From Flavobacteriales bacterium (GTDB lineage Bacteria > Bacteroidota > Bacteroidia > Flavobacteriales_F > PHOS-HE28): 64,000 bases of DNA. Below the pieces are notes generated by a model. That model saw only the letters and a list, made by a program, of their open reading frames with translations, was not told the DNA's origin and did not search any database. Positions within the stretch are counted from its first letter, which is position 1; each line of letters begins with the position of its first letter. Of this stretch, positions 8,135 through 49,969 are shown one piece after another. The stretch is from assembly GCA_044507815.1 (NCBI GenBank), contig JBIQIX010000004.1:195288-259287 (forward strand). The letters run 5' to 3'. A program made the translations under genes and the position numbers.

Positions 8135-8229
8135 GGCACAAAGATGGAACGGTGGCCACAGCGCTGCGCGGTCCTTCCGGTGCACCCCAGGGCCTAATTT
8201 TGGCCGGATCTCCAACTCCCCGCTATACC

Positions 8230-24312: not shown

Positions 24313-25323
24313 TCAGAACTTCGGGCAGGGCACGGCGCGGTACTTCCGGTTCTTTCCGGTGCGCGGCCATTCATAGATCACGGAGATCTCATGGGCACCG
24401 CCGCTTTTCATCGTCAGCTTGCTCACCGTAACGTCATAGCTGTACACCAGCCGCAATTGGTAGGGTGTTTCATAGCCCATCATCAAGATCACGGCATCGT
24501 CGTTCGGGTAGCCGGGCTGGTATGCTTTCAGGCCGGGCAGGCCGCGGTACCAAAGCCCGAAGCTCACTTCGCGGTGGTCCACATAGCCGCCCAGGTCCAG
24601 CTGGTCCCATTTCTGTTGTGCCTTGTAGTGCGCGGCCAGCGTCATTTTGGTCTCGCTGTAGCGGAATGACCTTCCATCGAGCGGAAAGCGGTAGCCAGCG
24701 TGCACGCTGCTGCGGATCGGCAGTTGGGCGTCGCCATCCAGATAGATGCTTTGCTGGGGGCGGTTGATGTGGTTGGTGGAAAAGCCCGCCCAAAATTGCT
24801 CCGAGTAATAAAGAAAGCCGGCGGAGAAATCGAGGTAGGACACGTTCTGCATGCTGGGTGCCTCAATGCTCCTGGGCGCATTGTCGCGGATCACCTGGTC
24901 GGCGAACAGCATGTTGCCCTGGTCGAAGGTGCGGGAGGTGTAGGCCGCACGGATGCCGCCCCTAACCGCACGGCGCCGGTTGATGCGCGCCTCGTAGGAG
25001 TAATTGAGGGCCATTTGGGTGAAGGCCAGGTTGAAGGTGCCTGCCCGGTCATGCATCACCATGCCGCCGATGCCGCTGTTGATGTCGGCCGCCCGGTGGT
25101 CGTATGCAACGGCGTAGGTTTTGTAACCAGGTCCGATGCCTGGCCACTGAAGCCTGTAATTTATGCCGATCCGGTCCTGGTGCGTGTTGCCGGTAAGGGC
25201 CGGATTGAGGTACATCGGCGCTGCATACCATTGCGACAGTTGCGGGTCCTGGGCGGAAAGCCGTGCGGTTGCGATGGCCACCACCGCAAGAAGCGGAAGG
25301 ATGCGTGTCATGTTTCGGCTCAT
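24313..25323 (-). CDS. Type IX secretion system membrane protein of the PorP/SprF family (cognate partner of the upstream type-B C-terminal-domain adhesin)
   Basis: Signal peptide plus the family N-terminal signature (QDPQLSQWYAAPMYLNPALTGN…RIGINYRLQW) and a beta-barrel-like remainder. The start ATG (25321–25323) overlaps the adhesin stop codon as ATGA. An alternative start is at 25311. Confidence 0.75.
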   Translation of the reverse strand: MSRNMTRILPLLAVVAIATARLSAQDPQLSQWYAAPMYLNPALTGNTHQDRIGINYRLQWPGIGPGYKTYAVAYDHRAADINSGIGGMVMHDRAGTFNLAFTQMALNYSYEARINRRRAVRGGIRAAYTSRTFDQGNMLFADQVIRDNAPRSIEAPSMQNVSYLDFSAGFLYYSEQFWAGFSTNHINRPQQSIYLDGDAQLPIRSSVHAGYRFPLDGRSFRYSETKMTLAAHYKAQQKWDQLDLGGYVDHREVSFGLWYRGLPGLKAYQPGYPNDDAVILMMGYETPYQLRLVYSYDVTVSKLTMKSGGAHEISVIYEWPRTGKNRKYRAVPCPKF

Positions 25324-28300
25324 CGGAACAGGGTGAGGTCGCCGGTGCGCTGCATTTCCTTGTTGTCCACAAAGCGCACCCACACTTGATAGACATAAAC
25401 ATCCTGTTGGCTCAACTGGCCCCGGTAGTAGCCATCCCAGCCACGCCGGATATCGTCGCTTTCAAATACCAGTTCACCCCAGCGGTTGAAGATCCGCATG
25501 CGGAAATTCTTAACGAAGCGGATGAATGGATAGAACACATCGTTGCTCAGGTCGGAAGGGTCGTAAAACCCATTGCCGCCGCCGTTGGGGTTGGGGGTGA
25601 ACACGTTTGGTATGGTGATATCGTAGATCGGGTTTACCTTTACCGTGTGCCCGACATTCGCGGTGCATCCATGGTCATCGGTCACCGTAAGCCCCACTGT
25701 CCATACCCCGGGTTCTTCGAAATGGTGGTACGGGCTCGGATCCAGGCTCATGGCACCATCGCCGAAGCTCCATTGCCAACTGTTCACCGTGCCGGTGGAT
25801 TGGTCGATGAACTGGATGTTGGCATGGTCTGCATCGGTTTCCCATGGGTTGGCGGTGAATGCGGCCACTGGCGGGGCGAACGCGTGTACGGCGCCTGTGT
25901 TGGCCGCATTTGCCGAGCAGCCCAGCGGGGTGGTGACCGTAAGCGAGACGTTGTAATTGCCCGCCGTATAGGTGTGCACCGGTGACATCGAGGTGCTGGT
26001 GGCGCCGTTGCCGAAATTCCAGAAATAGCTCACGGGCTGGTTGGTAAGCCCTGTGGGGAAGTGTACCGTAAGCGGGGCGCAGCCTTGTGCGATCACCGGC
26101 GGAAGGGTAATGGTGGGCGGTGTTTCCACGGCGATGTTCACCGAGCGTTGGATGGTATTGGCGCAGATGTCGGTGGCCGTTACGGTCAATGAGCGGCTGG
26201 CCTGGGCAGTGATGTGGAACGGTCCGCTGCCGGTGGCCGGTATTTGCGGCCAGGACAGGGAGGTTTGGCCCGGGTAACCCGTTACCCATGCACCCACCGT
26301 GGCCGTGCCGCCAGGGCAGAAGGCGGTGTCGCCATATGTGTTCAAGGTGGCCAGTGCGAGGTTGAGCACGGTTACCGGAAGTTCCACGATGGGGCCATTG
26401 CACCCGTTCTGGTCCGTAACGCTAACGGTCACCACCTGCGTGGCGGGGAAGGAATATTGCAGGCTATCGCCCGTGCCGATGCCTGCCCATGTGATCTGGT
26501 AGTTCCCAGCGCCGCCGGCCGCCTGCGCCGTAAGCGGCACCGGCACGTTCACGCATACGGTATCCTCCACCTGCGCGGTCAGCAGCACCGGCGTTGGGTC
26601 GGGCAGTGTTACGGCGCCCTGCACCTGGCAACCGTGGCTGTCGGTGACCACCACGGTGTAAGCGCCGGCGGTAAGGCTGTACGCGGACGAGCCCGTTTGC
26701 GAATTGGTGTTGGCGCTCCACTGGTAGCTGTAGCCGGGTGTGCCGCCTGCAGGTTGGCCCATGGCCGAGCCATTGGCGCCACCATGGCATGAGGGCGCGT
26801 TGGGTTGAATGTTCACCGTAAGTGGTGCGGGTTCGGTGATCGTGGCGGTTGCCGTGGTGTCGCAGCCATGTTCATCGGTAACCAGCACGCTATATGTTCC
26901 TGCCGAGAGGCCCGTGGCCGTGGCGCTTTGTTGCCCTGCCGCATCGTTCCAGCTATAGGAGAAGCTGTTGTTGGCGGGCAGGAATGCGATTGCGCCTGAA
27001 CCATCGCCGTGGCAGGACAAATGTGTTGGCGTGATGCTGCTTCCAAAGAAGCTTGTGGGCAGCGTGATGTGCACGGTATCGGTGGCCGGAGGGCAGGTGG
27101 GGTTGCCCGTGGTGGTGAGCACCAGGCTCACACCGTTGGCCATGATCTCGGCCACCGTGGGCATGTAGGTCACATTGAGGCCGGTACCGGAGAATTGGCC
27201 ATTGCCTCCGCCCCATTGGCCGCTGGTGGCGTTGGTCACGGTCCCGTTCAGCTGCACGGGCAGGCTGCTGAAGCATCCGATGAGGTCAGCGCCCGCGTTG
27301 GCCGCGTTGGGCTGGCCCAAGGCCGTGATGGTTGCGGTGCCTTGTGCGGCCGCACAGTTGTTGGCGTCGGTAACAGTTAGGGTGTAGGTGCCGGCCGGGC
27401 CGTTCAGCGTGCTTCCCGTTTGCCCGTTGCTCCAGGCATACTGATAGGGCTGTGTTCCACCTGTGACGGTTGCCACAATGCTGCCATCGGCGTTGCCTGC
27501 GCATTGTTCATGGGTCACTTGCAGGGAGGCCACCGCCAATGCAGCGGGTTCGCTGATGGTGACGCTGAAGGTGGTGTCACAGCCGTAGGCATCGGTAACC
27601 AGCAGGTTGTGGTCCCCTGCGGGAAGCCCCGTTGCATTGGCCGTGCCTTGGCCGCTGGGCGTCCATTGGAAGGTCAACCCCGGGGTTGCTGGCGTAAAGG
27701 TGGCCGAACCGGTGGCTGTGCCGTTACAGGTGGCGTTGGTGTGTGAGACACTGCTTCCGAAGAAACTGGTGGGCAGCGTGATATGCACGGTATCGGTGGC
27801 CGGTGGGCAGGTGGGGTTGCCCGTGGTGGTGAGCACCAGGCTCACACCGTTGGCCATGATCTCGGCCACCGTGGGCATGTAGGTCACATTGAGGCCGGTA
27901 CCGGAGAATTGGCCATTGCCTCCGCCCCATTGGCCGCTGGTGGCGTTGGTCACGGTCCCGTTCAGCTGCACGGGCAGGCTGCTGAAGCATCCGATGAGGT
28001 CAGCGCCCGCGTTGGCCGCGTTGGGCTGGCCCAAGGCCGTAATGGTCGCACTGGCCTGGGCCGTGGTACAGTTGTTCGCATCGGTAACCGTTAGCGTGTA
28101 CGTACCTGCAGGGCCATGCAGGGTGGCGGTGGTTTGCCCGTTGCTCCAGCTATATGCATACGGTGGCGTGCCGCCGGTAACAATGGCGGTAATGGTGCCA
28201 TCGGCGTTCCCGGCGCATTGTTCGTCGGTCACCTGCAGGTTTGCGATGGCCAATGCGGCGGGTTGCGCTATGGTGGCTGTAAGGGTGGTGTCGCAGCCGG

Positions 28301-30137
28301 AGTTGTCGGTGACCAGTACGCTGTATGTGCCCGCTGGCAAGTCGGTGGCCGTGGCCGTGGTTTGGGCCGAAGGATCGTTCCATAGGAAGCCCAGCCCTGC
28401 CATAGTGGTGGTTACAGTAGCACTTCCGGTGGCTGAACCATTGCAAAGAAGGTCCGTTGCGCTGATGCTGCTTCCGGCGAAGCTGTTCGGCAGCGCGATG
28501 AACACGGTATCGGTGGCCACTCCGCATGGCGATTCACCGGTGGTGCTCAGCACCAAATGCAAACCGCCCGCGGCCACTTCACTTGGCGTGGGCATATAGC
28601 TCACATTCAGGCCTGTGCCGGACAAGGTGCCATCGCCCCCGCTCCAAATGCCGCCCGGGGCATTGGTTACCGAGCCGCTCAGTGCCACGGGCAAGGCGCC
28701 CATGCATCCTACCAGGTCCGGACCTGCGTTGGCCGTGCTGGGCTGGTTGGCCTCACCGATGGTAACGGCCAACGGCCCGGCAATGCAGCCGTTGCCGTCA
28801 GTGATCACCAAGGTGTAATTGCCAGCTGGCGCCGTGATCGAAGGGGTGGTGGCACCGGTGCTCCATTCATACTGGAACGGGGGCGTGCCCACGGTGATGT
28901 CCACGGTCGCACTGCCGTCCTGGTTGCCCGTGCACGACTCATCCACCACCGTGGGCGCGGCCGTCAGCAGCCCGGGCAGCACTTGCACCGAATACACATA
29001 GGTCTGCAGCGCGGGAATGGGGCATGCTCCATCATTTGCGGTGATGATGAATGGGAAGAAACCCGAAGCGCCGGGCGTGCCGGTCCAACAGACCCGAACG
29101 GTGAGCGGATTGGTGCCAACGGTGGTCAACGTGGCACCTGGCAGATTTTGTGCGAGGTTGGAGGTTACAGTGAGCACATCACCGGAGTTCGGGTCGCCGA
29201 TCACGGCATCGAAACAAAAATTCCCCGATTCGCAAATGCGGATGGCTCGGGGCCCCGTTTGCCATGCTTGGCCACTGAGGTTGCTCACCAGTCCCGTGGT
29301 GGGGTCGGGCGGGATGTTGGTGCAGGGGTAGGCAATGAACTGCATATCGCGCATGATCGATCCGATCCATACGCCATTGTGATCATAACGGTCCACCCGT
29401 ACAACCACCACCCAGTTGCCCACTTGGTTGAGCGTGAAGTTCACTTGTCCTGTGTGCGGGTCGAGGGTGATCCCCGTAATGGGCTCGGTGCCGGAAAATG
29501 GTGGCACATAGGGCAGGTCAACTGCGCCAACGTTACGCGCGTTGATGAAAGTGTAGGTCAATGAATCACCGGCCGGGTCGTAGGCCCCGTAGCTGTATGA
29601 GATGGGGTAGCCGGCACATACGTACGGGATGGCGGCGTTGGTGAAGCGCGGCGACTCCTGGCAAGGCCCATCGACGTTGTTGATGCGCGCCTCGGTGTAG
29701 ATGTTCTTATTGCCGGGGGTCACCAAGTTGGCAATGGCACCGTTGCGGTAGGTGTCCGTCCAAGAGATCGTCCAGTAATCGCAGGGGGGAAGGGTGACCA
29801 CGCCGGTATACACATATTCCTGCATGCCCGGCAATGATCCGTTGCTGTGGCAGGTGCTTTGGGCCATTTGGGCCTGGCAGAGCTGGGAGATTTCGGTGCC
29901 ACCGTTGGTGCTCACCGTAACGGAACGGTTGCCGCAAGGGCTCTGTACGCTGAGCGAGTATGAGTTGGAGAGGTTCTGCCCGGCGCAATCGCGGTACACC
30001 ATCATGGTGATCCGGTATTGGTTTCCGCCCAGGCATTCGTAGTAGATCTCGCCCCCGGCGATGTGCGTGGCCTTGGTGGTGGCGGCGGACAGCAATAGGA
30101 GAATGAGAAGCAGAAAGGCTGGTGATCTGCGTGGCAT
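25320..30137 (-). CDS. SprB-like giant cell-surface adhesin with a type-B T9SS/gliding-motility C-terminal domain
   Basis: There is a signal peptide (MPRRSPAFLLLILLLLSAATTKA). The body is built from many SprB-type repeats (C-x-G-x-x-DG-[ST]…VTGGT-x-PY-x-Y-x-WSNG). A PKD domain follows (WQWSFGDGAMS…GVWTVGLTVTDDHGC). The C-terminal domain matches the gliding-motility-associated type-B class (NVFTPNPNGGGNGFYDP…WGELVFES…GWDGYYRGQ…). The gene is immediately followed by a PorP/SprF gene. Confidence 0.8.
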   Translation of the reverse strand: MPRRSPAFLLLILLLLSAATTKATHIAGGEIYYECLGGNQYRITMMVYRDCAGQNLSNSYSLSVQSPCGNRSVTVSTNGGTEISQLCQAQMAQSTCHSNGSLPGMQEYVYTGVVTLPPCDYWTISWTDTYRNGAIANLVTPGNKNIYTEARINNVDGPCQESPRFTNAAIPYVCAGYPISYSYGAYDPAGDSLTYTFINARNVGAVDLPYVPPFSGTEPITGITLDPHTGQVNFTLNQVGNWVVVVRVDRYDHNGVWIGSIMRDMQFIAYPCTNIPPDPTTGLVSNLSGQAWQTGPRAIRICESGNFCFDAVIGDPNSGDVLTVTSNLAQNLPGATLTTVGTNPLTVRVCWTGTPGASGFFPFIITANDGACPIPALQTYVYSVQVLPGLLTAAPTVVDESCTGNQDGSATVDITVGTPPFQYEWSTGATTPSITAPAGNYTLVITDGNGCIAGPLAVTIGEANQPSTANAGPDLVGCMGALPVALSGSVTNAPGGIWSGGDGTLSGTGLNVSYMPTPSEVAAGGLHLVLSTTGESPCGVATDTVFIALPNSFAGSSISATDLLCNGSATGSATVTTTMAGLGFLWNDPSAQTTATATDLPAGTYSVLVTDNSGCDTTLTATIAQPAALAIANLQVTDEQCAGNADGTITAIVTGGTPPYAYSWSNGQTTATLHGPAGTYTLTVTDANNCTTAQASATITALGQPNAANAGADLIGCFSSLPVQLNGTVTNATSGQWGGGNGQFSGTGLNVTYMPTVAEIMANGVSLVLTTTGNPTCPPATDTVHITLPTSFFGSSVSHTNATCNGTATGSATFTPATPGLTFQWTPSGQGTANATGLPAGDHNLLVTDAYGCDTTFSVTISEPAALAVASLQVTHEQCAGNADGSIVATVTGGTQPYQYAWSNGQTGSTLNGPAGTYTLTVTDANNCAAAQGTATITALGQPNAANAGADLIGCFSSLPVQLNGTVTNATSGQWGGGNGQFSGTGLNVTYMPTVAEIMANGVSLVLTTTGNPTCPPATDTVHITLPTSFFGSSITPTHLSCHGDGSGAIAFLPANNSFSYSWNDAAGQQSATATGLSAGTYSVLVTDEHGCDTTATATITEPAPLTVNIQPNAPSCHGGANGSAMGQPAGGTPGYSYQWSANTNSQTGSSAYSLTAGAYTVVVTDSHGCQVQGAVTLPDPTPVLLTAQVEDTVCVNVPVPLTAQAAGGAGNYQITWAGIGTGDSLQYSFPATQVVTVSVTDQNGCNGPIVELPVTVLNLALATLNTYGDTAFCPGGTATVGAWVTGYPGQTSLSWPQIPATGSGPFHITAQASRSLTVTATDICANTIQRSVNIAVETPPTITLPPVIAQGCAPLTVHFPTGLTNQPVSYFWNFGNGATSTSMSPVHTYTAGNYNVSLTVTTPLGCSANAANTGAVHAFAPPVAAFTANPWETDADHANIQFIDQSTGTVNSWQWSFGDGAMSLDPSPYHHFEEPGVWTVGLTVTDDHGCTANVGHTVKVNPIYDITIPNVFTPNPNGGGNGFYDPSDLSNDVFYPFIRFVKNFRMRIFNRWGELVFESDDIRRGWDGYYRGQLSQQDVYVYQVWVRFVDNKEMQRTGDLTLFR
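26612..28753 (-). repeat. Intragenic tandem repeat array: three copies of a 714-bp (238-aa) unit inside the adhesin gene, with two copies sharing a perfectly identical 234-bp core
   Basis: The sequence at 27036–27345 matches 27750–28059 almost exactly, at an offset of 714 bp, and 27092–27325 versus 27806–28039 is identical. A more diverged third copy is recognisable at the protein level (GEANQPSTANAGPDLVGC… versus GQPNAANAGADLIGC…). The ORF track independently shows duplicated antisense peptides at 26968–27168 and 27607–27882. Confidence 0.75.
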
Positions 30138-30266
30138 GCGAGAGGCTTGGGTGTGTATTCCTACGGGAAACAGCCGACGAGGTTTCAGGAAGCAGCATCC
30201 GCGCCACCGTACAGGTTCCAAGCGCCGGTTGCGGGAATTAACTTCGCGGCCCTGTATGCAAAGAGC

Positions 30267-31607
30267 ATGTTCGAGAACCTAAGCGACAAGTTGGAACGCG
30301 CCTTCAAGGTGCTGAAAGGCCAAGGCCAGATCACGGAGATCAACGTGGCCGAAACGATGAAGGAGGTGCGGCGCGCCCTGTTGGATGCCGACGTGAACTT
30401 CAAAACGGCCAAGGAGTTCACCGATCGGGTGAAGGCCAAGGCCCTGGGCCAGGATGTGCTTACCTCGGTAAGCCCGGGCCAATTGCTCATCAAGATCACC
30501 CACGACGAGCTGGCTGCCCTTATGGGTGGCACCAATGCGGGCATCAACCTTTCCGGCAACCCGACGGTGGTGCTCATGAGCGGCCTGCAGGGCTCGGGGA
30601 AAACCACGTTCAGCGGCAAGCTCGCCAACTTCCTGCGGAAAAAAGGGCGGCGCGTGCTGCTTACTGCGGCCGATGTGTACCGCCCCGCGGCCATCGACCA
30701 GTTGGAGACCTTGGGCAAACAGCTCGATATCAGCGTTTACAGCGAGCGGGACAACAAGGACCCCGTGGCCATTGCACGCAATGCCGTGGCCCATGCCAAG
30801 CAGCATGGCTTCACGGCCGTGATCATCGATACCGCCGGCCGTTTGGCGGTGGACGAGGCCATGATGCAGGAGATTACGGCCATTAAGAAGGCCATCAGCC
30901 CGCAGGAAACCCTGTTCGTGGTGGATGCCATGACCGGCCAGGACGCGGTGAACACCGCCAAGGCCTTCAATGACCGCCTGGATATCGATGGGGTGGTATT
31001 GACCAAGCTGGACGGCGATGCCCGCGGTGGTGCTGCCCTTACCATCCGCAGCGTGGTGGACAAGCCCATCAAGTTCATCGGCACCGGCGAAAAAATGGAG
31101 GCCCTCGACGAGTTCCATCCCGACCGGATGGCCGGGCGCATCCTGGGCATGGGCGACGTGGTCTCGCTGGTGGAGCGCGCGCAGGAACAATTCGACGAAA
31201 AGCAGGCCCGTGCCCTGCAGAAGAAGATCGCCAAAGATCAGTTCGGCTTCGACGACTTCCTGGAGCAGATCCAGCAGATCAAGAAAATGGGCAATATGAA
31301 GGACCTCATGGCCATGATCCCGGGTGTGGGAAAGGCCATGAAGAACCTCGACATTCCGGATGATGCCTTCAAGGGCATTGAGGCCATCATCAGCAGCATG
31401 ACCCCGCATGAGCGCCGTGAGCCCTCGGTGATCAACGGTAGCCGCCGCCAGCGCATCGCCTCTGGCAGCGGCACCAACGTGGCCGAGGTGAACAAACTGA
31501 TGAAGCAGTTCGAGGAAACCCGGAAGATGATGAAAATGATGGGCGACAAGAGCAAGATGAAGGCGATGATGCAGCGCATGCAGCAGATGCAGGGCATGAA
31601 CCGCTGA
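30267..31607 (+). CDS. ffh: Signal recognition particle protein Ffh
   Basis: N domain, then a G domain with the GTPase motifs (GLQGSGKTT, DTAGR, TKLDGDARGG), then a Met-rich M domain at the C-terminus. Confidence 0.9.
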   Translation: MFENLSDKLERAFKVLKGQGQITEINVAETMKEVRRALLDADVNFKTAKEFTDRVKAKALGQDVLTSVSPGQLLIKITHDELAALMGGTNAGINLSGNPTVVLMSGLQGSGKTTFSGKLANFLRKKGRRVLLTAADVYRPAAIDQLETLGKQLDISVYSERDNKDPVAIARNAVAHAKQHGFTAVIIDTAGRLAVDEAMMQEITAIKKAISPQETLFVVDAMTGQDAVNTAKAFNDRLDIDGVVLTKLDGDARGGAALTIRSVVDKPIKFIGTGEKMEALDEFHPDRMAGRILGMGDVVSLVERAQEQFDEKQARALQKKIAKDQFGFDDFLEQIQQIKKMGNMKDLMAMIPGVGKAMKNLDIPDDAFKGIEAIISSMTPHERREPSVINGSRRQRIASGSGTNVAEVNKLMKQFEETRKMMKMMGDKSKMKAMMQRMQQMQGMNR

Positions 31608-31656: not shown

Positions 31657-33516
31657 TTGATGCGCTTGGAATGCCTGTTCGGCGTCTTTCTTTCAATTGG
31701 TGCCATGGCCCAAACCGGGCCTGCCGGCATTGGCGGCCCGCCCAGTAATCCGCTGTGGCTGGATGCCGGCACCGGGGTATTCAAGGGTGCCGGAAGCAAC
31801 CCGGCCGGCAACGGCGATGCCGTGCAACAATGGAACAATGTTTCCGGCAATGCCAGGCATGCACAACAATCGACAGCGCCCAACAGGCCGCAATACAGGG
31901 CGAACGTGCTGAATGGCCGGCCCGCTGTGCGTTTCAATGCCTCAAGCGGCACGCGCATGGCCATCTCGGCGTTGAACAGCTCCACGGCCGGAAAGGCTTC
32001 CCTGTGGGCCGTGGTCAGCTATTCCAGCTTGCCCAGCCCCAACCCCGGCGTGTTGCAGGGCACCGCCCCGGGCAACGTGTATTCCAGCATTCCAGCCGAT
32101 AAGAACATCGGCCTGTGGGTGAGCAACGTGCACAAGGTGTGGGGCAGGGGAATCCAAACCGATGGCGCAAGCGTGAATGTGCCCGCGGTCACTTCACTCT
32201 CGGCCAATACGTTCTACATCCTCAGCACACAGTACGATGGTACGCGGATCAGCCAGTATGTGAACAACGCTTCGGCAGGTGTGGCCAGCTACAACGGAAC
32301 CCTGCGGCCATGGCCCGATATGTCGATCGGCACCCAGGCCGGTACGGAGGGTTGGAATGGCGACATCGCCGAGGTGGTGGCCTTCAACACGGTGCTGAAT
32401 GGCACGCAGCAATTGATCATGGCCAACTACCTGGCAGCCAAGTACGGCCTTTTGCTCGGTGCCGACGATATCTACACGCAGGATGATCTGGCCAACGGTA
32501 ACTACGACCACGAGGTGGCCGGGATCGGACGGATATCGGCAACCGATATGCATACCTCGGCCAAGGGAACCGGCATTGTGCAGATCGCCGGTGCCACGGC
32601 TTTGGATAACAACGAATTCTTGATCTGGGGCCACGATGGCGGCACATTGGGCTCTTGGGGAGCAGGAGAACGCCCTGCGGGGGTAATGGAACGGCTGGTG
32701 CGGACGTGGCGGGTGAACGAAGTGAACCGCTCCGGAAACCCGGTGGACGTGGGCGCCGTGGACATCACCTTCGACCTGTCCGGCCTGGGGCCGGTGGTGG
32801 CCGCCGATCTGCGCTTGCTTGTGGACAGCAACAACGACGGTGCCTTCGCCGATGAATCGCCACTGGCCGGTGCGGTGGCATTGGGCGGCGGGCAGTACCG
32901 TTTCAACGGCATCTCCGCCCTAAAGAACAACGTCCGGTTCACCCTGGGCTCGGCCAACCGGGTAACCACGCCACTGCCCGTGGAATTGCTCCATTTCGAG
33001 GCCATTCCGCAGGGCAGGGAGGTGAGGCTGGCCTGGGCCACCGCAAGCGAAAGCAACAATCGTTGGTTCACCGTGGAACGCTCAGGCGATGCACTTGACT
33101 GGGAAGCTGTGGCCACTTTGCAGGGAGCGGGCAACAGCACCCAACCCCTGGAATATTCAACGCGCGACCTTGCACCCTTGGCAGGCACCAGTTATTACCG
33201 CTTGCGCCAGACCGACCACGATGGAAGAACCACATTTTCCGAAGCGAGGCCCGTGGTGAGGGGCATGCCCGCTCCGGTCATCATTTACCCGAATCCCGCC
33301 CGCGGGCCTTTCTCGGTGATGCTTGATCCCATGGAAGAGGATGCCACGGTGGAGCTGGTCGATATGGATGGACGTGTGCTGTGGCAGCGTACCTCAGCAG
33401 GGGCGGGCACCCGTGTGCTTGTGGATATGGCGGAGCTGCCTGCCGCGATGTACATGGTCAGGATCGCATCAGGCCAACATTCCCGCGCAGGAAGGTTGGT
33501 TGTTCCGGCCCATTGA
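31657..33516 (+). CDS. Secreted protein with a LamG/concanavalin-like domain and a type-A T9SS C-terminal sorting domain
   Basis: Signal peptide (MMRLECLFGVFLSIGAMAQ); LamG-like motif (GWNGDIAEVVAFNTVLN); a C-terminal domain with IIYPNPARGPFSVML…VELVDMDGRVL…YMVRI. Confidence 0.6.
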   Translation: MMRLECLFGVFLSIGAMAQTGPAGIGGPPSNPLWLDAGTGVFKGAGSNPAGNGDAVQQWNNVSGNARHAQQSTAPNRPQYRANVLNGRPAVRFNASSGTRMAISALNSSTAGKASLWAVVSYSSLPSPNPGVLQGTAPGNVYSSIPADKNIGLWVSNVHKVWGRGIQTDGASVNVPAVTSLSANTFYILSTQYDGTRISQYVNNASAGVASYNGTLRPWPDMSIGTQAGTEGWNGDIAEVVAFNTVLNGTQQLIMANYLAAKYGLLLGADDIYTQDDLANGNYDHEVAGIGRISATDMHTSAKGTGIVQIAGATALDNNEFLIWGHDGGTLGSWGAGERPAGVMERLVRTWRVNEVNRSGNPVDVGAVDITFDLSGLGPVVAADLRLLVDSNNDGAFADESPLAGAVALGGGQYRFNGISALKNNVRFTLGSANRVTTPLPVELLHFEAIPQGREVRLAWATASESNNRWFTVERSGDALDWEAVATLQGAGNSTQPLEYSTRDLAPLAGTSYYRLRQTDHDGRTTFSEARPVVRGMPAPVIIYPNPARGPFSVMLDPMEEDATVELVDMDGRVLWQRTSAGAGTRVLVDMAELPAAMYMVRIASGQHSRAGRLVVPAH

Positions 33517-33597
33517 AGGCGAACTGGCCGGCGGGCCATGGGAGATGGATCCCGAAATGCTTTTACCGCTGGGGGATGGGCATTAGTTTCGGCCCCC

Positions 33598-34488
33598 ATG
33601 CAGGAACAAACAGCCACGTACCGCTTATTGGACGGCGTGGAATGCGGCAAGGCGCTACGCATTGGCATCGCCTCAGAAGCATCACAGGTGAAGAAGGATC
33701 GTGGACGGGCGCCGCACCTGGTGGCCGTGCTGGTCGGCGAGGACCCGGCCAGCCAAACCTATGTTGCCAGCAAGGTGAAGGCCTGCGAGGAAGTAGGCTT
33801 CAAAAGCACACTGCTGAAAAGGCCCGCCAACACCACCGAGGAAGAGTTGCTCACCCTGGTGCAGCAGCTCAATAATGACAGCGATGTTGATGGCTTCATC
33901 GTGCAATTGCCCCTGCCCGGGCACATCGATGAAGAGCGTGTGACCCTGGCCATCGATCCCGACAAGGATGTGGACGGTTTCCATCCCCAGAACCTGGGAC
34001 GCATGATCTTGGGACTGCCCGGCTACCTGCCGGCCACACCGAACGGTATCTTGGCCATGCTCGCGCATTACGAGGTGCCCACGGAAGGAAGGCATTGCGT
34101 GGTGGTGGGCCGCAGCCACATTGTGGGCACCCCCATGAGCATATTGATGGGGCGCAACAATTCGCCGGGCAACTGCACGGTTACCTTGGCACACAGCCGC
34201 ACACGCGATTTGCCTTCCATCACGCGCCAGGCCGATATACTCATTGTGGCCATCGGCAAGCCGAACTTCATCGGTGCCGAAATGGTGAAAGAAGGTGCCG
34301 TAGTGGTGGACGTGGGCATACACAGGTTGCCGGATCCATCCAGGAAAAGCGGCCATCGCCTGTGCGGCGATGTGGATTTCACGGCCGTGGCACCCAAGGC
34401 CTCGTGGATCACTCCGGTACCGGGCGGCGTAGGCCCCATGACCGTCACCAGCCTGTTGATCAATACGCTCAAGGCCGCGAAACGTTAG
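33598..34488 (+). CDS. folD: Bifunctional methylenetetrahydrofolate dehydrogenase/cyclohydrolase
   Basis: FolD signature regions LVGEDPASQTYVASKVKACEEVGF and VVGRSHIVGTPMSILM; C-terminal GGVGPMTV. Confidence 0.85.
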   Translation: MQEQTATYRLLDGVECGKALRIGIASEASQVKKDRGRAPHLVAVLVGEDPASQTYVASKVKACEEVGFKSTLLKRPANTTEEELLTLVQQLNNDSDVDGFIVQLPLPGHIDEERVTLAIDPDKDVDGFHPQNLGRMILGLPGYLPATPNGILAMLAHYEVPTEGRHCVVVGRSHIVGTPMSILMGRNNSPGNCTVTLAHSRTRDLPSITRQADILIVAIGKPNFIGAEMVKEGAVVVDVGIHRLPDPSRKSGHRLCGDVDFTAVAPKASWITPVPGGVGPMTVTSLLINTLKAAKR

Positions 34489-34556: not shown

Positions 34557-35213
34557 ATGCCAGAGGAGAGAGCATCATTTTACAACCAGGTCTTCGGCAA
34601 CAACCGCAAATGGATCGAGCAGAAGAAGGCCGAGGACCCCGACTACTTCACGCACCTTGCCCAAGGGCAACAACCCGAAATCCTGTTCATCGGTTGCAGC
34701 GATAGCCGCGTTACCGCGGAGGAACTGATGGGTGCCTCGCCGGGGCAGGTGTTCGTGCACCGCAACATTTCCAACGTGGTGGGCAGCGCCGACCTCAACG
34801 CCCTTAGCGTGGTGGAATATGCCATTGGCGCACTGGAGGTGAAGCACGTGGTGGTATGCGGCCATTATGGCTGCGGAGGGGTGAAGGCAGCCATGCAACC
34901 GCAGGACCTTGGCCTGCTGAATCCCTGGTTACGCATGATCCGGGATGTTTACCGCCTGCACCGTGCCGAGCTGGATGCCATTGGCGATGAAAAGAAGCGC
35001 TACGACCGGCTGGTGGAACTGAACGTGGAGGAGCAGTGCATCAACGTGATCAAGACGGCTGTTTTCCAGAAAGCATTCCTGCGCACAAAGCACCCCCAGG
35101 TGCACGGCTGGGCCTTCAACATGGCCACGGGTGAACTGGTGGACCTGCACTTCGATTTTGAGCGCAAGCTCGATGAGATCAGGGCCATCTACGACCTGAA
35201 GCCTGTCAATTGA
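34557..35213 (+). CDS. Beta-class carbonic anhydrase
   Basis: The CSDSRV zinc-ligand motif is present (FIGCSDSRVTAEELM) and HYGCGGV supplies the second His/Cys ligands. Confidence 0.8.
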   Translation: MPEERASFYNQVFGNNRKWIEQKKAEDPDYFTHLAQGQQPEILFIGCSDSRVTAEELMGASPGQVFVHRNISNVVGSADLNALSVVEYAIGALEVKHVVVCGHYGCGGVKAAMQPQDLGLLNPWLRMIRDVYRLHRAELDAIGDEKKRYDRLVELNVEEQCINVIKTAVFQKAFLRTKHPQVHGWAFNMATGELVDLHFDFERKLDEIRAIYDLKPVN

Positions 35214-35265
35214 TTCACGATCCGGCGTTTGCCCGGGCCCTCAATAACCCAAAACCACCAAAACC

Positions 35266-36849
35266 ATGCGATTTCCAGTGATGCTGCTTGGGGCAGCACT
35301 AATGGCCACAACCTCTGTGGCCGCCCAAAAGAAAACAAACAAGGCCACCGTGAATTGGGGCCCCGACCTTACCGAAAAGGAGAACGGTTCATTCGATGAA
35401 GTGGTCGGCGATAACGGAACATCCACCTTCCTGCTCGTGGACCGCAAGAAGGGCAAGTTCATACAGCGGATGGACGGGCTGAAAATGGCGTGGGAAAAAC
35501 CGCTTGAGCTGAAGATGGACAAAAAGGACATGCGCCTTGAACGGATCATGCTCACGGATGCCGAGATCCATGTGTTCACCAGTTTGTACGACAAAAAGCA
35601 GAACGAAAACCGGCTGTACGTTTCAAGCTATGACCAACAAGGCTTTGCACCGGGTAGGCAATTCCAGTTGCTGGCAACCATGCACGCAGAGAAGCAGTCG
35701 AATGCGGGCACATTTTTCATGCAGCTTTCGCCCGGCAAGGGCAAGATCCTGGTGAATGCCACACCGCCGTATGATAAGAAGTCCACGGAGCGTACCACTA
35801 TGCATATGTTCAGTTCAGACCTGCAGCTGCTATGGTCCCAGGAATTCAAGCTGCCATACACCGATGAGGAATTCAAGATGGAGAGCTGGCGTGTGGATGA
35901 TGACGGCGCCGTGGTGCTCCTCGGCGTGAAGTATGCGTCGAAGCAGGAACGGAGGGAACTCAAGCGTGCCAACCAGGCCACTTACGAATATCATTTGCTG
36001 GTGTACGACGGTGCTTCCGCACAACCTTCGGACAACCTGATATCCGTACCGGATAAATTCCTGCAGGACATGACCATTTCCATGGGTGCCACAGGCGACA
36101 TTTTATGCGGAGGCCTTTACGGGAACAAAGGCAGCTTCAGCGTGCGCGGGGCCTACTATCTGCGGTTGGACCGCAACTCCAAGCAGGTCGTGCACGCGAG
36201 TTATAAGGAATTCTCGGATGACTTCATCACTTCCTACATGGAGGAAAAAGCCGCTGCCAAGGCGAAGAAAAAGGCCGATAAAAAGGGGGAGGAGCTTGAG
36301 CTTCCGGAATTCCAGCTGAACGATATCATCCTCCGCGACGATGGCGGGGCCGTGTTGCTGGCCGAGCAGTACATCGTGCGGGAGGTGACCACCACCTACA
36401 CCTCCAACGGCCAAACGTACACCACCACGAGCACGCACTACTATTACAACGACCTGTTGGTGATCAACATTGACCCAAGCGGCGACATACAGTGGGCGAT
36501 AAAGATCCCCAAGCGCCAACACAGCGTGAACGATCAAGGACGTTTCAGCGGGGTGGCGGTGAACGTGAAGCAAGACAAGATCTACTTCGTGTTCAACGAT
36601 ACCGGTGAAAACCTCTTCCTCAAGCCGGGCGACAAGGTGAAGCAATTCGCGCTCACCGGAAAAGATGCACTGGTGGTGCTGGCCACCGTGGATGCCAACG
36701 GGACGGTAAGCCGCGAGGCCCTGTTCTCACCCGATCGGCGTGACGTGATCCTTCGCCCCAAGGATTGTGTGGAGCTGGAGGACGAAAGCATGTTCATATA
36801 CGCCAACCGTAAAAAGGATTACCGGTACGGGCTGATCACCTTCAAGTGA
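35266..36849 (+). CDS. Hypothetical secreted protein (527 aa, Lys/Glu-rich), no recognisable domain
   Basis: Signal peptide (MRFPVMLLGAALMATTSVAAQ) and a clean long ORF. The local GC content (about 52–55%) is lower than the ~62% background. Confidence 0.5.
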   Translation: MRFPVMLLGAALMATTSVAAQKKTNKATVNWGPDLTEKENGSFDEVVGDNGTSTFLLVDRKKGKFIQRMDGLKMAWEKPLELKMDKKDMRLERIMLTDAEIHVFTSLYDKKQNENRLYVSSYDQQGFAPGRQFQLLATMHAEKQSNAGTFFMQLSPGKGKILVNATPPYDKKSTERTTMHMFSSDLQLLWSQEFKLPYTDEEFKMESWRVDDDGAVVLLGVKYASKQERRELKRANQATYEYHLLVYDGASAQPSDNLISVPDKFLQDMTISMGATGDILCGGLYGNKGSFSVRGAYYLRLDRNSKQVVHASYKEFSDDFITSYMEEKAAAKAKKKADKKGEELELPEFQLNDIILRDDGGAVLLAEQYIVREVTTTYTSNGQTYTTTSTHYYYNDLLVINIDPSGDIQWAIKIPKRQHSVNDQGRFSGVAVNVKQDKIYFVFNDTGENLFLKPGDKVKQFALTGKDALVVLATVDANGTVSREALFSPDRRDVILRPKDCVELEDESMFIYANRKKDYRYGLITFK

Positions 36850-36865
36850 CCCGGCACCGGGGAAA

Positions 36866-36906
36866 CGAACAAGGCCGGCGGAGCATCCACCGGCCTTGTT
36901 CGTTTG
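36866..36906. terminator. Bidirectional intrinsic terminator
   Basis: Perfect 13-bp stem: cgaacaaggccgg - 11-nt loop - ccggccttgttcg, followed by TTTGGG and preceded by GAAA. It lies between the convergent hypothetical gene (plus strand) and ribH (minus strand). Confidence 0.6.
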
Positions 36907-36922: not shown

Positions 36923-37411
36923 TCAGTACGCCCCGCCTTTGCGCAGGGCCGCCATTTTCAGTACTGCCACCGCGGCCTCCACGCCCTTGTTGCCATGCTT
37001 GCCGCCGCTGCGGGCGCGTGCCTGTTCCATGTTGTCATCGGTAAGCACGCAAAAGATCACCGGCATGCTGGTCTTCAGGCCCACTTCCATGATGCCGTGC
37101 GCTGCCGCCTGGCAAACGAAGTCGAAGTGCGGGGTTTCGCCGCGCACCACGCTCCCGATGCAGATCACGCCATCAAGCGCATGTTGCTCCAGCAGCATTT
37201 GGGCGCCCAGGGCCAGCTCGTAGCTGCCCGGTACCTGCCATTCACGCAGATCCTTCAGGGCCACACCGTGCTTCAACAGGGTTTCCACGGCGCCATCGCG
37301 CAGCGCGCCAGTGATCTCGGCGTTCCATTCGCTCACAACCAGTCCCAAACGCAAACCGGTGCCCTTGGGGACACCGGCTGCATCGTATTTCGAAAGATCC
37401 GTGGTGGCCAT
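36923..37411 (-). CDS. ribH: 6,7-dimethyl-8-ribityllumazine synthase
   Basis: Lumazine synthase motifs (LRLGLVVSEWNAEIT, SYELA, HFDFVC). The start ATG overlaps the TAA of the upstream TPR gene by 1 nt. Confidence 0.85.
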   Translation of the reverse strand: MATTDLSKYDAAGVPKGTGLRLGLVVSEWNAEITGALRDGAVETLLKHGVALKDLREWQVPGSYELALGAQMLLEQHALDGVICIGSVVRGETPHFDFVCQAAAHGIMEVGLKTSMPVIFCVLTDDNMEQARARSGGKHGNKGVEAAVAVLKMAALRKGGAY

Positions 37412-38100
37412 TACGAAGGCTGGCCGGCCATGGCCTTGGCACGTGCGGCGTATTTCTTGGCCATGGCCGCATCGGGCGCATTGGGGTAGTCGTTGGTGAT
37501 GCGCCCGAAGCAGTTCGCCGCATTCTTCCAATCGCCCTGTTGCTGGTAAACGATGCCGGCCTTCATCAGGAACATCGGCGTGGTGTAGTCGCTGTTCACC
37601 AGGTTGGCCGCCTTCATGAACTGGGTGGCCGCATCGGCCGGCCGGCCGAGTTCCACCAGCACGTCGCCCTGGTTGCCCGTGGCCATCACGCGCAGCACGT
37701 CATCGCCAAGGTCCGCCTCCTTGTAATACTGCAACGCAGCCTCGTGGTCCCCTTGCTGGTGCTTGATCACCGCGATGTAGAACTTGGCCAGGTTGCCCGT
37801 GGTGGTGCTGCCGTACTGGTCGGCCACATCCAGGAAGCCCAAGTAGTTGCCGTCGCCATTGAGCGCCTTGTCCAATGAATCGATCTCGAAATAATACTGG
37901 GCCTTCCAGATCATCTCCTGCGCCTCCTTGGCGCGCGGCTCGGCAACGAACTTGCGGTAGCCCAGCAGGCCCCCAACGATCACCAGCACTGCCACCACGC
38001 CGATGGTGATCGCCTTCTTGTTCTTTTCCAGAAAGAGCTCGCTCTTGGTGTAGATCTCACCAATGTCCAGGTCTTTCTGCTCACTTGTTTTGGTCGACAT
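37411..38100 (-). CDS. Membrane-anchored tetratricopeptide-repeat protein (YfgM-like architecture)
   Basis: N-terminal transmembrane anchor (ITIGVVAVLVIVGGLLGY) followed by TPR-like helical repeats. Immediately upstream of ribH on the same strand. Confidence 0.65.
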   Translation of the reverse strand: MSTKTSEQKDLDIGEIYTKSELFLEKNKKAITIGVVAVLVIVGGLLGYRKFVAEPRAKEAQEMIWKAQYYFEIDSLDKALNGDGNYLGFLDVADQYGSTTTGNLAKFYIAVIKHQQGDHEAALQYYKEADLGDDVLRVMATGNQGDVLVELGRPADAATQFMKAANLVNSDYTTPMFLMKAGIVYQQQGDWKNAANCFGRITNDYPNAPDAAMAKKYAARAKAMAGQPS

Positions 38101-45544: not shown

Positions 45545-48500
45545 TTAGCGACCCAGCAGGGCATTGAGGTGAAGTGTGGTCAGGCCCAATTGGAGCAGCA
45601 CATCGAGGTGGGCCTCCTCGATCGCCCTGGCTTGTTCCATGCCTTGCAGGAATTCCATGTAGCTGGCCTCGCCGCTTTGGTAGGCCCGGGTGGCATCATG
45701 GCGCAGGGCCGTGGCCAACGCCGTGCCTGTGCCCTGGTAGTATTCGAGGCTTTGTTGCAATTGGGTCCATTGGGCGCGTGTAGCGGTCAGTTCGGCCACA
45801 CGCCCGCGGCGCAGTTCCTCGTATTGTTGTTCGGCGATCTCGCTGCGCAGGCGGGCCGCACGGGTCTGCGCTCCCTGTCCCGAACCGGGCAGGGGGATGG
45901 AAGTGCCGAGCACGTAACCTTTGTATGGGAATACGCCATCGATGGATTGGAGGATCGCACCGGCTTGCAATGATGGCGCCCATTGGGCGCGCTGCATGCG
46001 CCATTCGGCCCCGGCCACTTGGGCCCGTTGCCGTGCCGATGCCAGCACGGGGTCGTGCCCAGCGTCTGCCGGCGGGTCGGTTAGCTGTGTTGCCATGCGG
46101 GCCAAGGCGGCGGTATCGGCGACGGCCCCGGCCAGTGGGCCGGTCCATTGTTCAAGTTCAACCGCAAAAACAGCCACGTCCGAGCTTGCCTTTTGCCATT
46201 GCAGCCTGGCCTGGTCGGCAGCGCTTTTCGCGCTCATGGCCTCCAAGCGTCCGCTTTGGCCCAGCTGGAATTTGCGGTCGGCCATGCTGGCCAGCAGTTG
46301 CATTGCGCTGTCGTTGCGCTGCAGTAGCCGTGCGCGCCAGGTGGCGGCCGACCACTGCAGGTAGGCCCCGGCCACGTTTTCGCGCACGGCCGCACCGATG
46401 CGCTGCCGGTCGGCCTCGGCTAAGCGCAGGCTTTCCTGCAAGTAGCGGCTGCGTTGGGCAATGGCCGTGGGGAACGGGATACCGGTAACGGCTTGCAGGT
46501 TGAAATCGTGGGCGGCACTGTTGATCTGCCCGCCCTGCAGCTGGGCGCTGACCGGTTGGAGCTGTAATGCGGTTTTCTTCAGGGCCTGCTGCTGCCGCAC
46601 GTCCAGTTCGGCGGCCGTAATGGCAGGGTGGCCCCGCATGGCGCGGGCGATGGCCGTATCAAGGGGCAGCACGGGCGCCTGCGCGCTTGCCGGCACGGCC
46701 GCCGTAATGGCCAAGGCGAGCACCATGATGGGCGCGCCGCCTGGGGAATCGCGCTTCTGCTTCCGTTTCCTGCGCATGAACACCCAGTGGTAGAGCACGG
46801 GAACCACGGCCAGGGTGAGCAGGGTGGAGGTTATGAGACCCCCGATAACCACCGTGGCCAAGGGACGTTGCACTTCTGCGCCGGGGCTGGTGCTGATGGC
46901 CATGGGCAGGAAGCCGAGCGAGGCCACGGCAGCGGTGGCCAGCACGGGCCGCAAGCGGGCCATGGTGCCGCGCACCACGCGCTCGGTCACGTCCTCCACG
47001 CCGTCCGCCTTCAAGCGGTTGAAATAGCTCATGAGCACGATGCCGTTGAGCACCGCCACGCCGAAGAGCGCGATGAAGCCGATGCCCGCGCTGATGCTGA
47101 AGTCCAGCCCGCGCACCCACAGGGCGAGCACGCCGCCCACCGCGGCCATGGGCACAGCGCTGAAGATGATCAGCGCTTCGCTGAGCGAGCGGAAGGCGAA
47201 GTAAAGCAGCACGAAGATGAGGGCCATGGCCAGCGGCACGGTGAGCAGCAGCCGCGCGCTGGCTTCCTGCAAATTCTTGAACGTGCCGCCGTAGCTGACG
47301 AACCAGCCGGTGGGCAGCTTCAGGTCGCGGCCGATCACGGCTTGGATATCTTCCGCCGTGCTTTGGATGTCGCGGCCCCGCACGTTGGCTTCCACCACGA
47401 TGCGCCGCGCGCCGTTCTCGCGGCTCACCTGTGCGGCCGCGCTTTGGAAGCTCACTTCGGCCAGTTGCCCCAGTGGGATCTGCTTGCCCGTGCCGGGCAG
47501 CGGCACCAGAATGCTCTTCACTTTATCGGCGTCCGCATCGCGCATGTCGGCCAGGCGCACCACCAGGTCGAAGCGGCGTTCACCTTCATACACCACGCCG
47601 GCGTGGCCGCCCGCCAAGGCGGTGTTCAGTACGCGGTTCAGCTCGGCGATGTTCAGCCCGTACTGCGCCACGCGGGCACGGTCGTATTTCACCACGAGTT
47701 GCGGCATGCCGGTCACCTGCTCCACCTTGATGTCCGTGGCCCCGGGCACCGTGGCGATCAGCGCGGCGGCTTCATTGGCCTTCTTGAACATGTGGTCGAG
47801 GTCGTCGCCGTAGATCTTCACCGCGATGTCGCTCTTCACCCCGGCGATCAGTTCGTTGAAGCGCATCTGGATGGGCTGCTCGAAGCTGAGGTTGATGCCG
47901 GGGATCACGCCGAGCTTTTCGGCCATCAGCTCCGCCATCTTCTCGCGGTCCTTCGTGGTGGTCCAGTCCTTGCGTTCCTTCATCACGATGATCAGGTCCT
48001 GGCTTTCCATGGGCATGGGGTCGGTGGGGATCTCGCTGCTGCCGATCTTGCCCACCACCTCCTTCACTTCCGGGAATTCCTTCATCAGGATGCGCGCGGC
48101 CTGATCGCTCACGGCGATGCTCTGGCTGAGGTTGCTTCCTTGGCGGATGGTGAGGTTGGTGGCGAAGTCGCCTTCATCCAGTTCGGGGATGAACTCGCCG
48201 CCCAAGCGGTTGAACACGAACAGCGAGATCACCACCAAGCCCAAGGCACCCGCCAAGGTGGACTTGCGGTGGCGCAGCAATCCCTTCAACTTGGGCGCAT
48301 ACCATTGCTGCAGGCGGTGTACCATGCGCTCGCTCCAGCTTTCACCTTTCGGGATCTGACGGTCCATGAAGAGTGAGACCACCCACGGCACATAGGTGAC
48401 GCTGAGCAGCAGTGCGCCGATGATGGCGAAGCTGACGGTGAATGCCATGGGGCGGAACATCTTGCCTTCGATGCCCACCAGGGCGAAGATGGGCACGTAC

Positions 48501-49873: not shown

Positions 49874-49969
49874 GCACGGGTGGGCGCAAGGGCAGCCCGG
49901 GATTAAGAAGGAAGGACTTGGGAAAAGGGGACGCCAACAGGCATTGCCGGGCGCGCGGGCGCTATGCAC

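Follow-up and report, generated by a model that had tools for sequence, protein, structure and literature searches.

Does a gene of unusually low GC content mark a foreign acquisition, or does its composition follow from the protein that it encodes, and what might that protein do? The question is raised by an open reading frame, here called X, in a 64,000-nucleotide stretch of DNA from a Flavobacteriales bacterium (the window, analysed at its full length). An earlier note, made from the letters of this DNA, had described X as a Lys/Glu-rich secreted protein with no recognizable domain, encoded within a low-GC island, and had put it forward as a candidate for a horizontally acquired or lineage-specific secreted factor.

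X is a genuine gene flanked by housekeeping genes

X occupies positions 35266-36849 on the plus strand, begins with ATG and encodes 527 amino acids, and the ORF list of the window confirmed the reading frame as it had been described. Strong purifying selection together with hundreds of full-length homologues make it certain that X is a real gene. The genes flanking it in the window (folD, the carbonic anhydrase gene and ribH) are housekeeping genes with cytoplasmic products. Upstream, folD (33538-34488, identified by a Pfam match) precedes the gene for a 218-aa beta-class carbonic anhydrase (34557-35213, plus strand), which was called from a same-species contig and whose Pfam match (Pro_CA) agreed with the carbonic anhydrase reported previously at this place. 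A 52-bp spacer (35214-35265, plus strand), A-rich directly before the ATG, separates the carbonic anhydrase stop codon from X; a scan for promoters and terminators picked up no candidate site in it. It is possible that X is co-transcribed with folD and the carbonic anhydrase gene. Downstream, ribH (36923-37411, minus strand, Pfam match), which encodes 6,7-dimethyl-8-ribityllumazine synthase, is convergent with X and is followed by a TPR protein gene (37411-38100, minus strand) and then by recF and dciA. Elsewhere in the window, odd-looking ORFs at 30185-31597 on the minus strand were rejected as genes and represent antisense shadows of ffh.

The stop codons of X and ribH are separated by a 73-bp gap, at the centre of which lies a GC-rich hairpin (36863-36905, not assigned to either strand). 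The hairpin has a perfect 16-bp core, with 36863-36878 pairing with 36890-36905, and its arms can be extended to 20 nt with 95% complementarity and a 3-nt loop. The calculated RNA free energies were -43.7 kcal/mol for the plus strand and -49.9 kcal/mol for the minus strand (z = -5.0 and -7.5, respectively), and none of 200 shuffled sequences folded as well. No U-tract follows the stem, and the element was not flagged by the consensus terminator scan. The locus had been credited with a perfect 13-bp-stem bidirectional terminator; a strong hairpin is indeed present, but its core is 16 bp rather than 13 bp and it lacks a U-tract. A relative with 80% identity keeps the hairpin at the same place with wobble changes, and relatives with 62% identity carry hairpins of different sequence at that place. 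Terminators between convergent genes normally behave in this way, keeping their position while the sequence shifts, and the hairpin is probably a bidirectional transcription terminator.

The low GC content of X follows from its amino acid composition

The raw GC content of X was 0.544 (54.4%), the lowest among the genes of the window, compared with 0.614 (61.4%) for the window and 0.58-0.62 for the neighbouring genes. A sliding-window analysis gave values of 0.53-0.55 across X and approximately 0.59-0.63 on either side. The dip noticed by eye is real, but it amounts to about 7 points relative to the window and 4-7 points relative to the immediate neighbours, and not to the 8-10 points originally estimated. 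Analysis by codon position revealed GC1/GC2/GC3 values of 0.55/0.35/0.73, with the deficit confined to codon positions 1 and 2 and GC3 inside the range of the neighbours (0.70-0.85). We also calculated an expected GC content by applying a synonymous-codon table, compiled from the 33 credible genes that accompany X in the window, to the amino acid sequence of X. The observed value of 0.544 compared with an expectation of 0.549 (difference -0.004, z = -0.69), and the residual of X ranked 18 of 34 window genes, which is the median. Synonymous codon usage was typical (mean log-probability z = -1.8, within the spread of the genes of the window). Once amino acid composition was corrected for, X was indistinguishable from its neighbours in GC content, the first of the outcomes that the note had named as refuting its idea.

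The composition of the protein itself is unusual. Lys makes up 8.9% of X compared with 3.3% in the other genes of the window, and Asp 8.0% compared with 4.7%; Glu is only mildly raised (5.9% compared with 4.7%), as are Tyr and Phe, and Ala, Gly and Pro are depleted. The description of X as Lys/Glu-rich thus stands for Lys but hardly for Glu, and Lys/Asp-rich and Ala/Gly/Pro-poor describes it better. Much of its richness in AAG and AAA codons is supplied by a Lys-rich insertion at residues ~318-345. When the GC content of X homologues was compared with that of their own flanks at 78 homologous loci, the homologue was below its flanks in 85% of them. The dip was present in all 45 relatives with a flank GC above 0.55 (mean -4.7 points), shrank to -1.4 points where the genome was below 45% GC, and scaled with genomic GC (r = -0.50, P = 3e-6). 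An inherited amino acid composition predicts exactly this pattern, with a dip in every high-GC relative and a smaller one at low GC. Taken together, these data demonstrate that the low GC content of X is a by-product of the Lys/Asp-rich, Ala/Gly/Pro-poor composition of its family in a high-GC genome.

X is native and vertically inherited

The gene order around X (T9SS-cargo/FolD/CA/X/ribH/TPR/recF/dciA/ndk) was identical in same-species contigs and was found again in relatives with 80% and 62% identity. X, ribH and the TPR gene were still together at 55% identity, and the context of X changed only at 46% identity or below. Across relatives the gene was therefore kept in place down to 55% identity, and not patchily distributed. 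The nearest genome was a Cryomorphaceae MAG. Comparison of X with its 80% relative gave dN = 0.12 and dS = 1.3, corresponding to a dN/dS of ~0.09, an approximate ratio given that dS is near saturation. No mobile-element genes, tRNA genes or repeats were noted beside X in the ORF lists of the window and of the same-species contig. The synonymous composition of X is native and its position is not variable in close relatives, the reverse of a horizontal island. The native corrected GC content, the dip in all 45 high-GC relatives, the conserved synteny and the dN/dS of ~0.09 leave horizontal acquisition unsupported, and on the first three of these grounds the suggestion that X is a candidate horizontally acquired gene did not hold up. 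X is a native, vertically inherited chromosomal gene under strong purifying selection.

X belongs to a very large, unnamed Bacteroidota family

A word-indexed search with X identified 117 full-length homologues of 520-540 aa, ranging from 80% to ~30% identity; all were labelled 'hypothetical' and none had a precomputed Pfam domain. A profile was then run exhaustively against 1.84 billion representatives of clusters at 50% identity; 8,323 of them scored E ≤ 1e-3, and 3,071 reached E ≤ 1e-30. In the top 150 of these 8,323, almost every match extended over the whole protein, at lengths of ~510-570 aa. When one genome was scanned for each GTDB species, at least 445 species genomes proved to carry an X homologue, and the best 80 of these include members of the Flavobacteriales (Cryomorphaceae, Crocinitomicaceae), the Cytophagales (Cesiribacter, Cyclobacteriaceae), the Saprospiraceae/Lewinellaceae (including Flavilitoribacter nigricans DSM 23189), the Chitinophagales and the Bacteroidales. 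A second word-indexed search, based on an alignment of distant members, returned 445 further matches, all annotated 'hypothetical protein'. One match of this distant-member search was labelled candidate division KSB1. The family is typically represented by a single gene for ~530 aa, and tandem pairs occur in a few loci.

Searches against libraries of known domains were negative. X gave only noise against Pfam and NCBIfam at E ≤ 10, and no significant match to these libraries was found for 26 other members (10 distant representatives and 16 from alignment A2). Against PDB sequences, phmmer with X returned noise (the designed 'Cake' and 'Scone' propellers at E ~0.3), and the best match to the family profile was 4pke at E = 0.58, which is also noise. 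Among the named propeller repeat profiles, X matched none of WD40, PQQ, PD40, Kelch, NHL, BNR, YncE-like and DUF5128/BF3164. The literature consulted on the Q-rule, PorD, CHU_0125 and the Bacteroidota BAM complex contained no mention of an X-like protein. The statement that X has no recognizable domain by sequence was thus upheld for Pfam and NCBIfam, PDB sequences and the repeat profiles alike. The proposal that X is lineage-specific is accurate at the level of the phylum only, as the family is essentially confined to the Bacteroidota. Clear orthologues with a known function had been named as the second finding that would refute the earlier reading; orthologues are abundant, but none carries a functional annotation. 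X is a member of a very large, unnamed family that extends across the Bacteroidota.

X carries a type I signal peptide and is probably periplasmic

The family alignment and the AlphaFold model both indicated a type I (Sec/SPI) signal peptide at residues 1-20 of X (35266-35325, plus strand), with the sequence MRFPVMLLGAALMATTSVAA followed by QKK and a predicted cleavage between A20 and Q21; the N-terminus reads MR, then FPVMLLGAALMATTSVAA, then Q. The alignment displayed a conserved hydrophobic core region, a small residue at position -1 in 60 of 64 members (Ala in 46, Gly in 9 and Ser in 5) and Gln at +1 (Q21) in at least 90% of members. In the model, residues 2-18 formed a lone helix and pLDDT fell below 50 at residues 18-20. 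The Q-rule states that Bacteroidetes signal peptidase I substrates acquire an N-terminal Gln that is cyclised to pyroglutamate (PMC5837995, PMC10653852). X has the charged, hydrophobic and cleavage regions, the small residue at -1 and the Gln at +1 of a Sec/SPI Q-rule substrate, for which cleavage and cyclisation are predicted. The signal peptide noted earlier was thus corroborated by the family alignment, the small -1 residue and the +1 Gln. The mature protein (residues 21-527, encoded with the stop codon at 35326-36849, plus strand) would have a mass of 57.8 kDa and a pI of 6.5.

Sorting signals for other destinations were absent. No lipobox was found in X, and a lipobox-like pattern occurred in only 1 of 75 family members; the only cysteines of X are C281 and C501, with none in the first 280 residues. 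Neither Por_Secre_tail (type A, TIGR04183) nor CHU_C (type B, TIGR04131) was detected in X at E ≤ 10 using Pfam and NCBIfam, and the same libraries detected Por_Secre_tail at 31657-33516 and CHU_C at 25320-30221 in neighbouring genes of the window. The C-terminal strands of X (residues 509-526) are built into the last propeller blade in the AlphaFold model. X also does not resemble an outer-membrane beta-barrel, being modelled as a propeller and not a barrel and having no terminal aromatic beta-signal; a conserved Phe is penultimate, with the C-terminus reading F-K/Q/E/D/N in 51 of 75 members. SPI cleavage with neither a lipid anchor nor a type IX signal leaves the periplasm as the default destination. 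Judged by these missing signals, X is probably periplasmic rather than secreted: the 'secreted factor' of the earlier note has an export signal, but with no type IX C-terminal domain and no lipobox the periplasm is the likelier location.

X is predicted to fold as a single beta-propeller

An AlphaFold2 model of X, built from a 59-sequence alignment, had a pLDDT of 90.2 and a pTM of 0.85 and was almost entirely beta. The fold class is clear from this model, which presents the mature protein as a single beta-propeller domain. The strand pattern suggests eight blades of four strands each: A (42-79), B (90-140), C (149-195), D (203-259), E (265-315), F (350-421), G (431-485) and H (502-526), with an N-terminal strand at residues 27-31 completing the last blade, H, in the model. 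Blades E and F are separated by the insertion at residues ~318-345 (36217-36300, plus strand), delimited by the AlphaFold helices and by conservation. It has the sequence FITSYMEEKAAAKAKKKADKKGEELEL, with a Lys-rich part 'EEKAAAKAKKKADKKGEELEL', and forms helices at 318-322 and 327-339 (pLDDT ~88-90); at least 90% of members share F320, I321, T322, K332 and K335. Blade F contains an unusually long beta-hairpin (residues 362-380 and 383-402), whose tip is variable and rich in Thr, Ser and Tyr. A Foldseek search with the model returned propellers, with a best TM-score of 0.41, and judged by this model X has no specific homologue among solved structures.

Conservation peaked at residues ~350-450 (36313-36615, plus strand), which correspond to blades F and G as placed by the alignments and DSSP strands. 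G360, E367, W410 and K416 were invariant in alignments A1 and A2, and D359, G361, Q368, Y392, Y394, N395, D396, Q418, D423, G425, S428, F443, N444, D445 and N449 were near-invariant in the family. We infer that this segment is a candidate binding or active site.

Gene neighbourhoods point loosely to the cell envelope

Clustering of the neighbouring genes at 87 loci of the X family revealed no partner gene conserved across the phylum. Several associations were restricted to particular lineages. The Saprospiraceae/Lewinellaceae loci run BamD-RpoZ-CoaBC-PorD(DUF4835)-X(-X)-PurN, with a TPR-PD40-CRD-SPOR protein coming next; the PorD-X-PurN-PorE-like order was found in ~10 loci, and the linkage was confined to this group. 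The TPR-PD40-CRD-SPOR neighbour resembles the peptidoglycan-binding PorE/CHU_0125 proteins, with scores of 187-279 bits compared with curated NCBIfam cut-offs of 600-620. An M14 peptidase gene lies directly downstream of X in 11 loci, limited to one Flavobacteriales subclade, and in this subclade a CHU_0125-like OmpA protein is encoded within 5 kb of X (loci L006 and L037). Six loci carry an OMP-like ORF of 200 aa that stops 13-15 bp short of X on the upstream side; the window lacks this ORF. An NlpC/P60 protein is encoded near the X homologue in locus L005. These lineage-restricted neighbours point loosely to the cell envelope, in agreement with the export signal of X. Guilt by association is nonetheless weak, since the neighbours are not conserved across the phylum and those in the window are cytoplasmic housekeeping genes.

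X may act as a binding platform in the cell envelope

The explanation that we favour overall, and consider reasonably likely, is that X is a native, Sec-exported propeller that resides in the periplasm and acts as a binding platform in the envelope. The mechanism is a more tentative proposal, modelled on other periplasmic propellers; it is the best supported one, though less likely than not. Signal peptidase I would cleave X after Ala20, and the new N-terminal Gln21 would be cyclised to pyroglutamate, as in most Bacteroidota SPI substrates. The 58-kDa mature protein would remain periplasmic or be associated with the outer membrane, folded as one eight-bladed propeller whose blades E and F are decorated by the Lys-rich helix and the long hairpin. 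It would serve as a non-catalytic platform that holds a partner protein or an envelope polymer, making contact through a polar patch on blades F and G (E367, Q368, N395, D396, K416, Q418, N444 and D445) and through the basic helix. In the databases and literature searched, no experiment or annotation assigns a function to any member of the family.

The same residues give rise to the main rival reading. The invariant Glu and Lys and the conserved Asp, Asn and Tyr, which count against a platform, appear equally compatible with an enzyme active site, and X may instead be a periplasmic propeller-fold enzyme (a glycan lyase or hydrolase, for instance, or an enzyme of peptide processing) whose substrate is imported or part of the envelope. 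The active site would be formed by E367 and K416 with Y392, Y394, N395, D396, Q418, N444 and D445. An enzymatic role, which we regard as rather unlikely while giving it real weight, is consistent with the polar or charged nature of the strictly conserved residues and their clustering in blades F and G, with the presence of GH43 xylosidases, ulvan lyases, a sialidase and a carotenoid oxygenase in the Foldseek list, and with the M14 peptidase immediately downstream in 11 loci and the NlpC/P60 protein nearby in L005. We are considerably more doubtful that X is tethered to the outer membrane by a beta-barrel or a PorE/CHU_0125-like partner, as an accessory to type IX secretion, gliding or outer-membrane integrity. 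In favour of such a role are the PorD-X-PurN-PorE-like order in ~10 Saprospiraceae/Lewinellaceae loci, the CHU_0125-like OmpA protein less than 5 kb away in L006 and L037 and the 200-aa OMP-like ORF 13-15 bp upstream in six loci. PorD has been described as part of the type IX secretion system, with PorW as an interaction partner (PMC8754138), and CHU_0125 is reported to affect outer-membrane integrity (PMC5891637). However, PorD, PorE-like and OMP partners are not adjacent to X in the window or in close relatives, the PorE-like matches are well under family cut-offs, and bamD-rpoZ-coaBC-porD is a conserved housekeeping cluster in the Saprospiraceae that X may merely adjoin. Nor is such a propeller reported in the type IX secretion interactome and BAM pull-down literature consulted.

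Recent acquisition of X as a low-GC island, with a lineage-specific secreted factor as its product, is very improbable, although the raw GC content (0.544, lowest in the window), the signal peptide and the lack of an annotated domain speak for it. The GC deficit is fully explained by amino acid composition, with native GC3 and codon usage, and the dip is common to the orthologues in every high-GC relative. The position of X is conserved down to 55% identity, its family is phylum-wide, the ORF lists contain no flanking mobile-element genes, and X has no type IX secretion C-terminal domain.

X lies outside the known propeller families

Judged by its sequence signatures, X would function like known exported propellers (BamB/PQQ, TolB/PD40 and the N-terminal domain of DPP-IV) yet lie outside all of them. 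BamB (YfgL), a subunit of the proteobacterial BAM complex, is a lipoprotein of the periplasm; it has ~390 aa, PQQ-like repeats and a propeller of eight blades. X shares ~10% identity with BamB and differs from it in having neither a lipobox nor a PQQ or other repeat signature, in its mature length of 507 aa and in its insertion of a basic helix and a long hairpin. No propeller subunit was present in the BAM complex purified from F. johnsoniae (PMC12611786), so a BamB-like role of X is without direct support and the likeness is one of analogy only. Dipeptidyl peptidase IV and prolyl tripeptidyl peptidase (S9B) have an N-terminal eight-bladed propeller and share 8-9% identity with X, but X lacks the alpha/beta-hydrolase catalytic domain and has no DPPIV_N or Peptidase_S9 Pfam match. 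The eukaryotic eight-bladed WD40 proteins (WDR41, Notchless/Rsa4, SCAP, Cdc4 and ODA16) share 7-9% identity; X has no WD40 signature, these proteins belong to another compartment, and common descent is unsupported. The PD40/TolB-type propellers, including PorE and CHU_0125, are, as X probably is, periplasmic envelope proteins of the Bacteroidota with a propeller, and the PorE/CHU_0125 family provides neighbours of X in the Saprospiraceae and in one Flavobacteriales subclade. X differs from them in having no PD40 repeats and no TPR, CRD, OmpA or SPOR domains, and forms a separate family.

Implications for the X family

X is an ordinary gene that adds a further member to the exported beta-propellers, and it belongs to a large family that has so far had neither a model nor a name. 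The case of X recommends that GC3 and composition-corrected GC be checked before horizontal transfer is invoked. A broader reading, to which we give little credence at present, is that the family has a periplasmic part, so far unrecognized and specific to the phylum, in building or maintaining the envelope, as its size, its presence in all major Bacteroidota orders and the strong purifying selection on it might suggest. If that were true, the family could take part in outer-membrane tethering, serve as an accessory to type IX secretion or gliding, or coordinate peptidoglycan with the outer membrane, the propeller docking PorD, PorE/CHU_0125-like proteins or small OMPs. For annotation, the ~530-aa proteins of this family can be summarized as a predicted eight-bladed propeller with a basic helix and a long hairpin, preceded by a Q-rule signal peptide. 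This description makes the X family a concrete candidate for family modelling and for gene deletion in cultured bacteria that carry it, such as Flavilitoribacter nigricans DSM 23189 and Cesiribacter sp.

The start codon of X, the exported protein with a predicted beta-propeller encoded at window positions 35266-36849 (+), was examined against public gene calls. Calls for the identical protein (public record P0001) start at Met6 and give 522 aa, placing the difference within window 35266-35283. Because homologues of X open with MR or MK followed by a hydrophobic core, the family alignment supports Met1 as the predicted start, as against the Met6 of the public calls. Tandem copies of the X family were observed around 6001-9200 in four loci from other contigs (L073, L075, L081 and L083), indicating that some members of the Saprospiraceae, as well as Flavobacteriales UBA1494, have undergone paralogous expansion of the family.

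Analysis of the genes adjoining X revealed an ORF of approximately 200 aa directly 5' of X in six loci (L007, 5413-5985; L057, 2888-3478; L058, 5380-5985; L065, 29-427; L067, 5373-5969; L072, 1094-1720), separated from X by 13-15 bp in L007, L058 and L067. The encoded protein has a signal peptide, is OMP-like at its C-terminus (...GYIF) and yielded no match in Pfam or NCBIfam. This OMP-like ORF is absent from the window. Together, the small ORF and X may represent a subclade-specific two-gene module. Enzymes of 10-formyl-tetrahydrofolate metabolism also adjoin X recurrently, in two distant orders: FolD lies directly 5' of X in the Flavobacteriales loci L026, L030, L031, L033, L042 and L051, and PurN directly 3' of X in the Saprospiraceae/Lewinellaceae loci L076-L080, L084 and L087. 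As X is an exported protein, this pairing is probably coincidental.

A 1,474-aa ORF at 45545-49969 (-), a single uninterrupted frame fusing an RND transporter to an outer-membrane factor, surpassed all other genes of the window in codon bias (z = +8.8, GC3 0.85). A complete AcrB-type RND domain (aa 37-1062, 922 bits) is followed by TolC-like OEP repeats extending to aa 1473. In the same-species contig L001, the gene calls likewise give this fusion as a single gene, of 1,442 aa. As read from its domains, one polypeptide would comprise both inner-membrane pump and outer-membrane factor, an arrangement that is topologically odd.

Three ORFs at 30185-31597 (-) displayed strange codon-position GC (GC1 0.32-0.42, GC3 0.81-0.87) and were rejected as genes, being antisense shadows of ffh (SRP54; about 30270-31607, +). 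The ffh gene is itself flanked by two type IX secretion cargo genes. The product of the first, at 25320-30221 (-), is a SprB-repeat/PKD protein of 1,633 aa bearing a CHU_C sorting domain (type B). That of the second, at 31657-33516 (+), is 619 aa long and carries a Por_Secre_tail domain (type A); its same-species copy in L001 is additionally annotated DUF8202. Taken together, these two cargo genes confirm the presence of a type IX secretion system in this organism.
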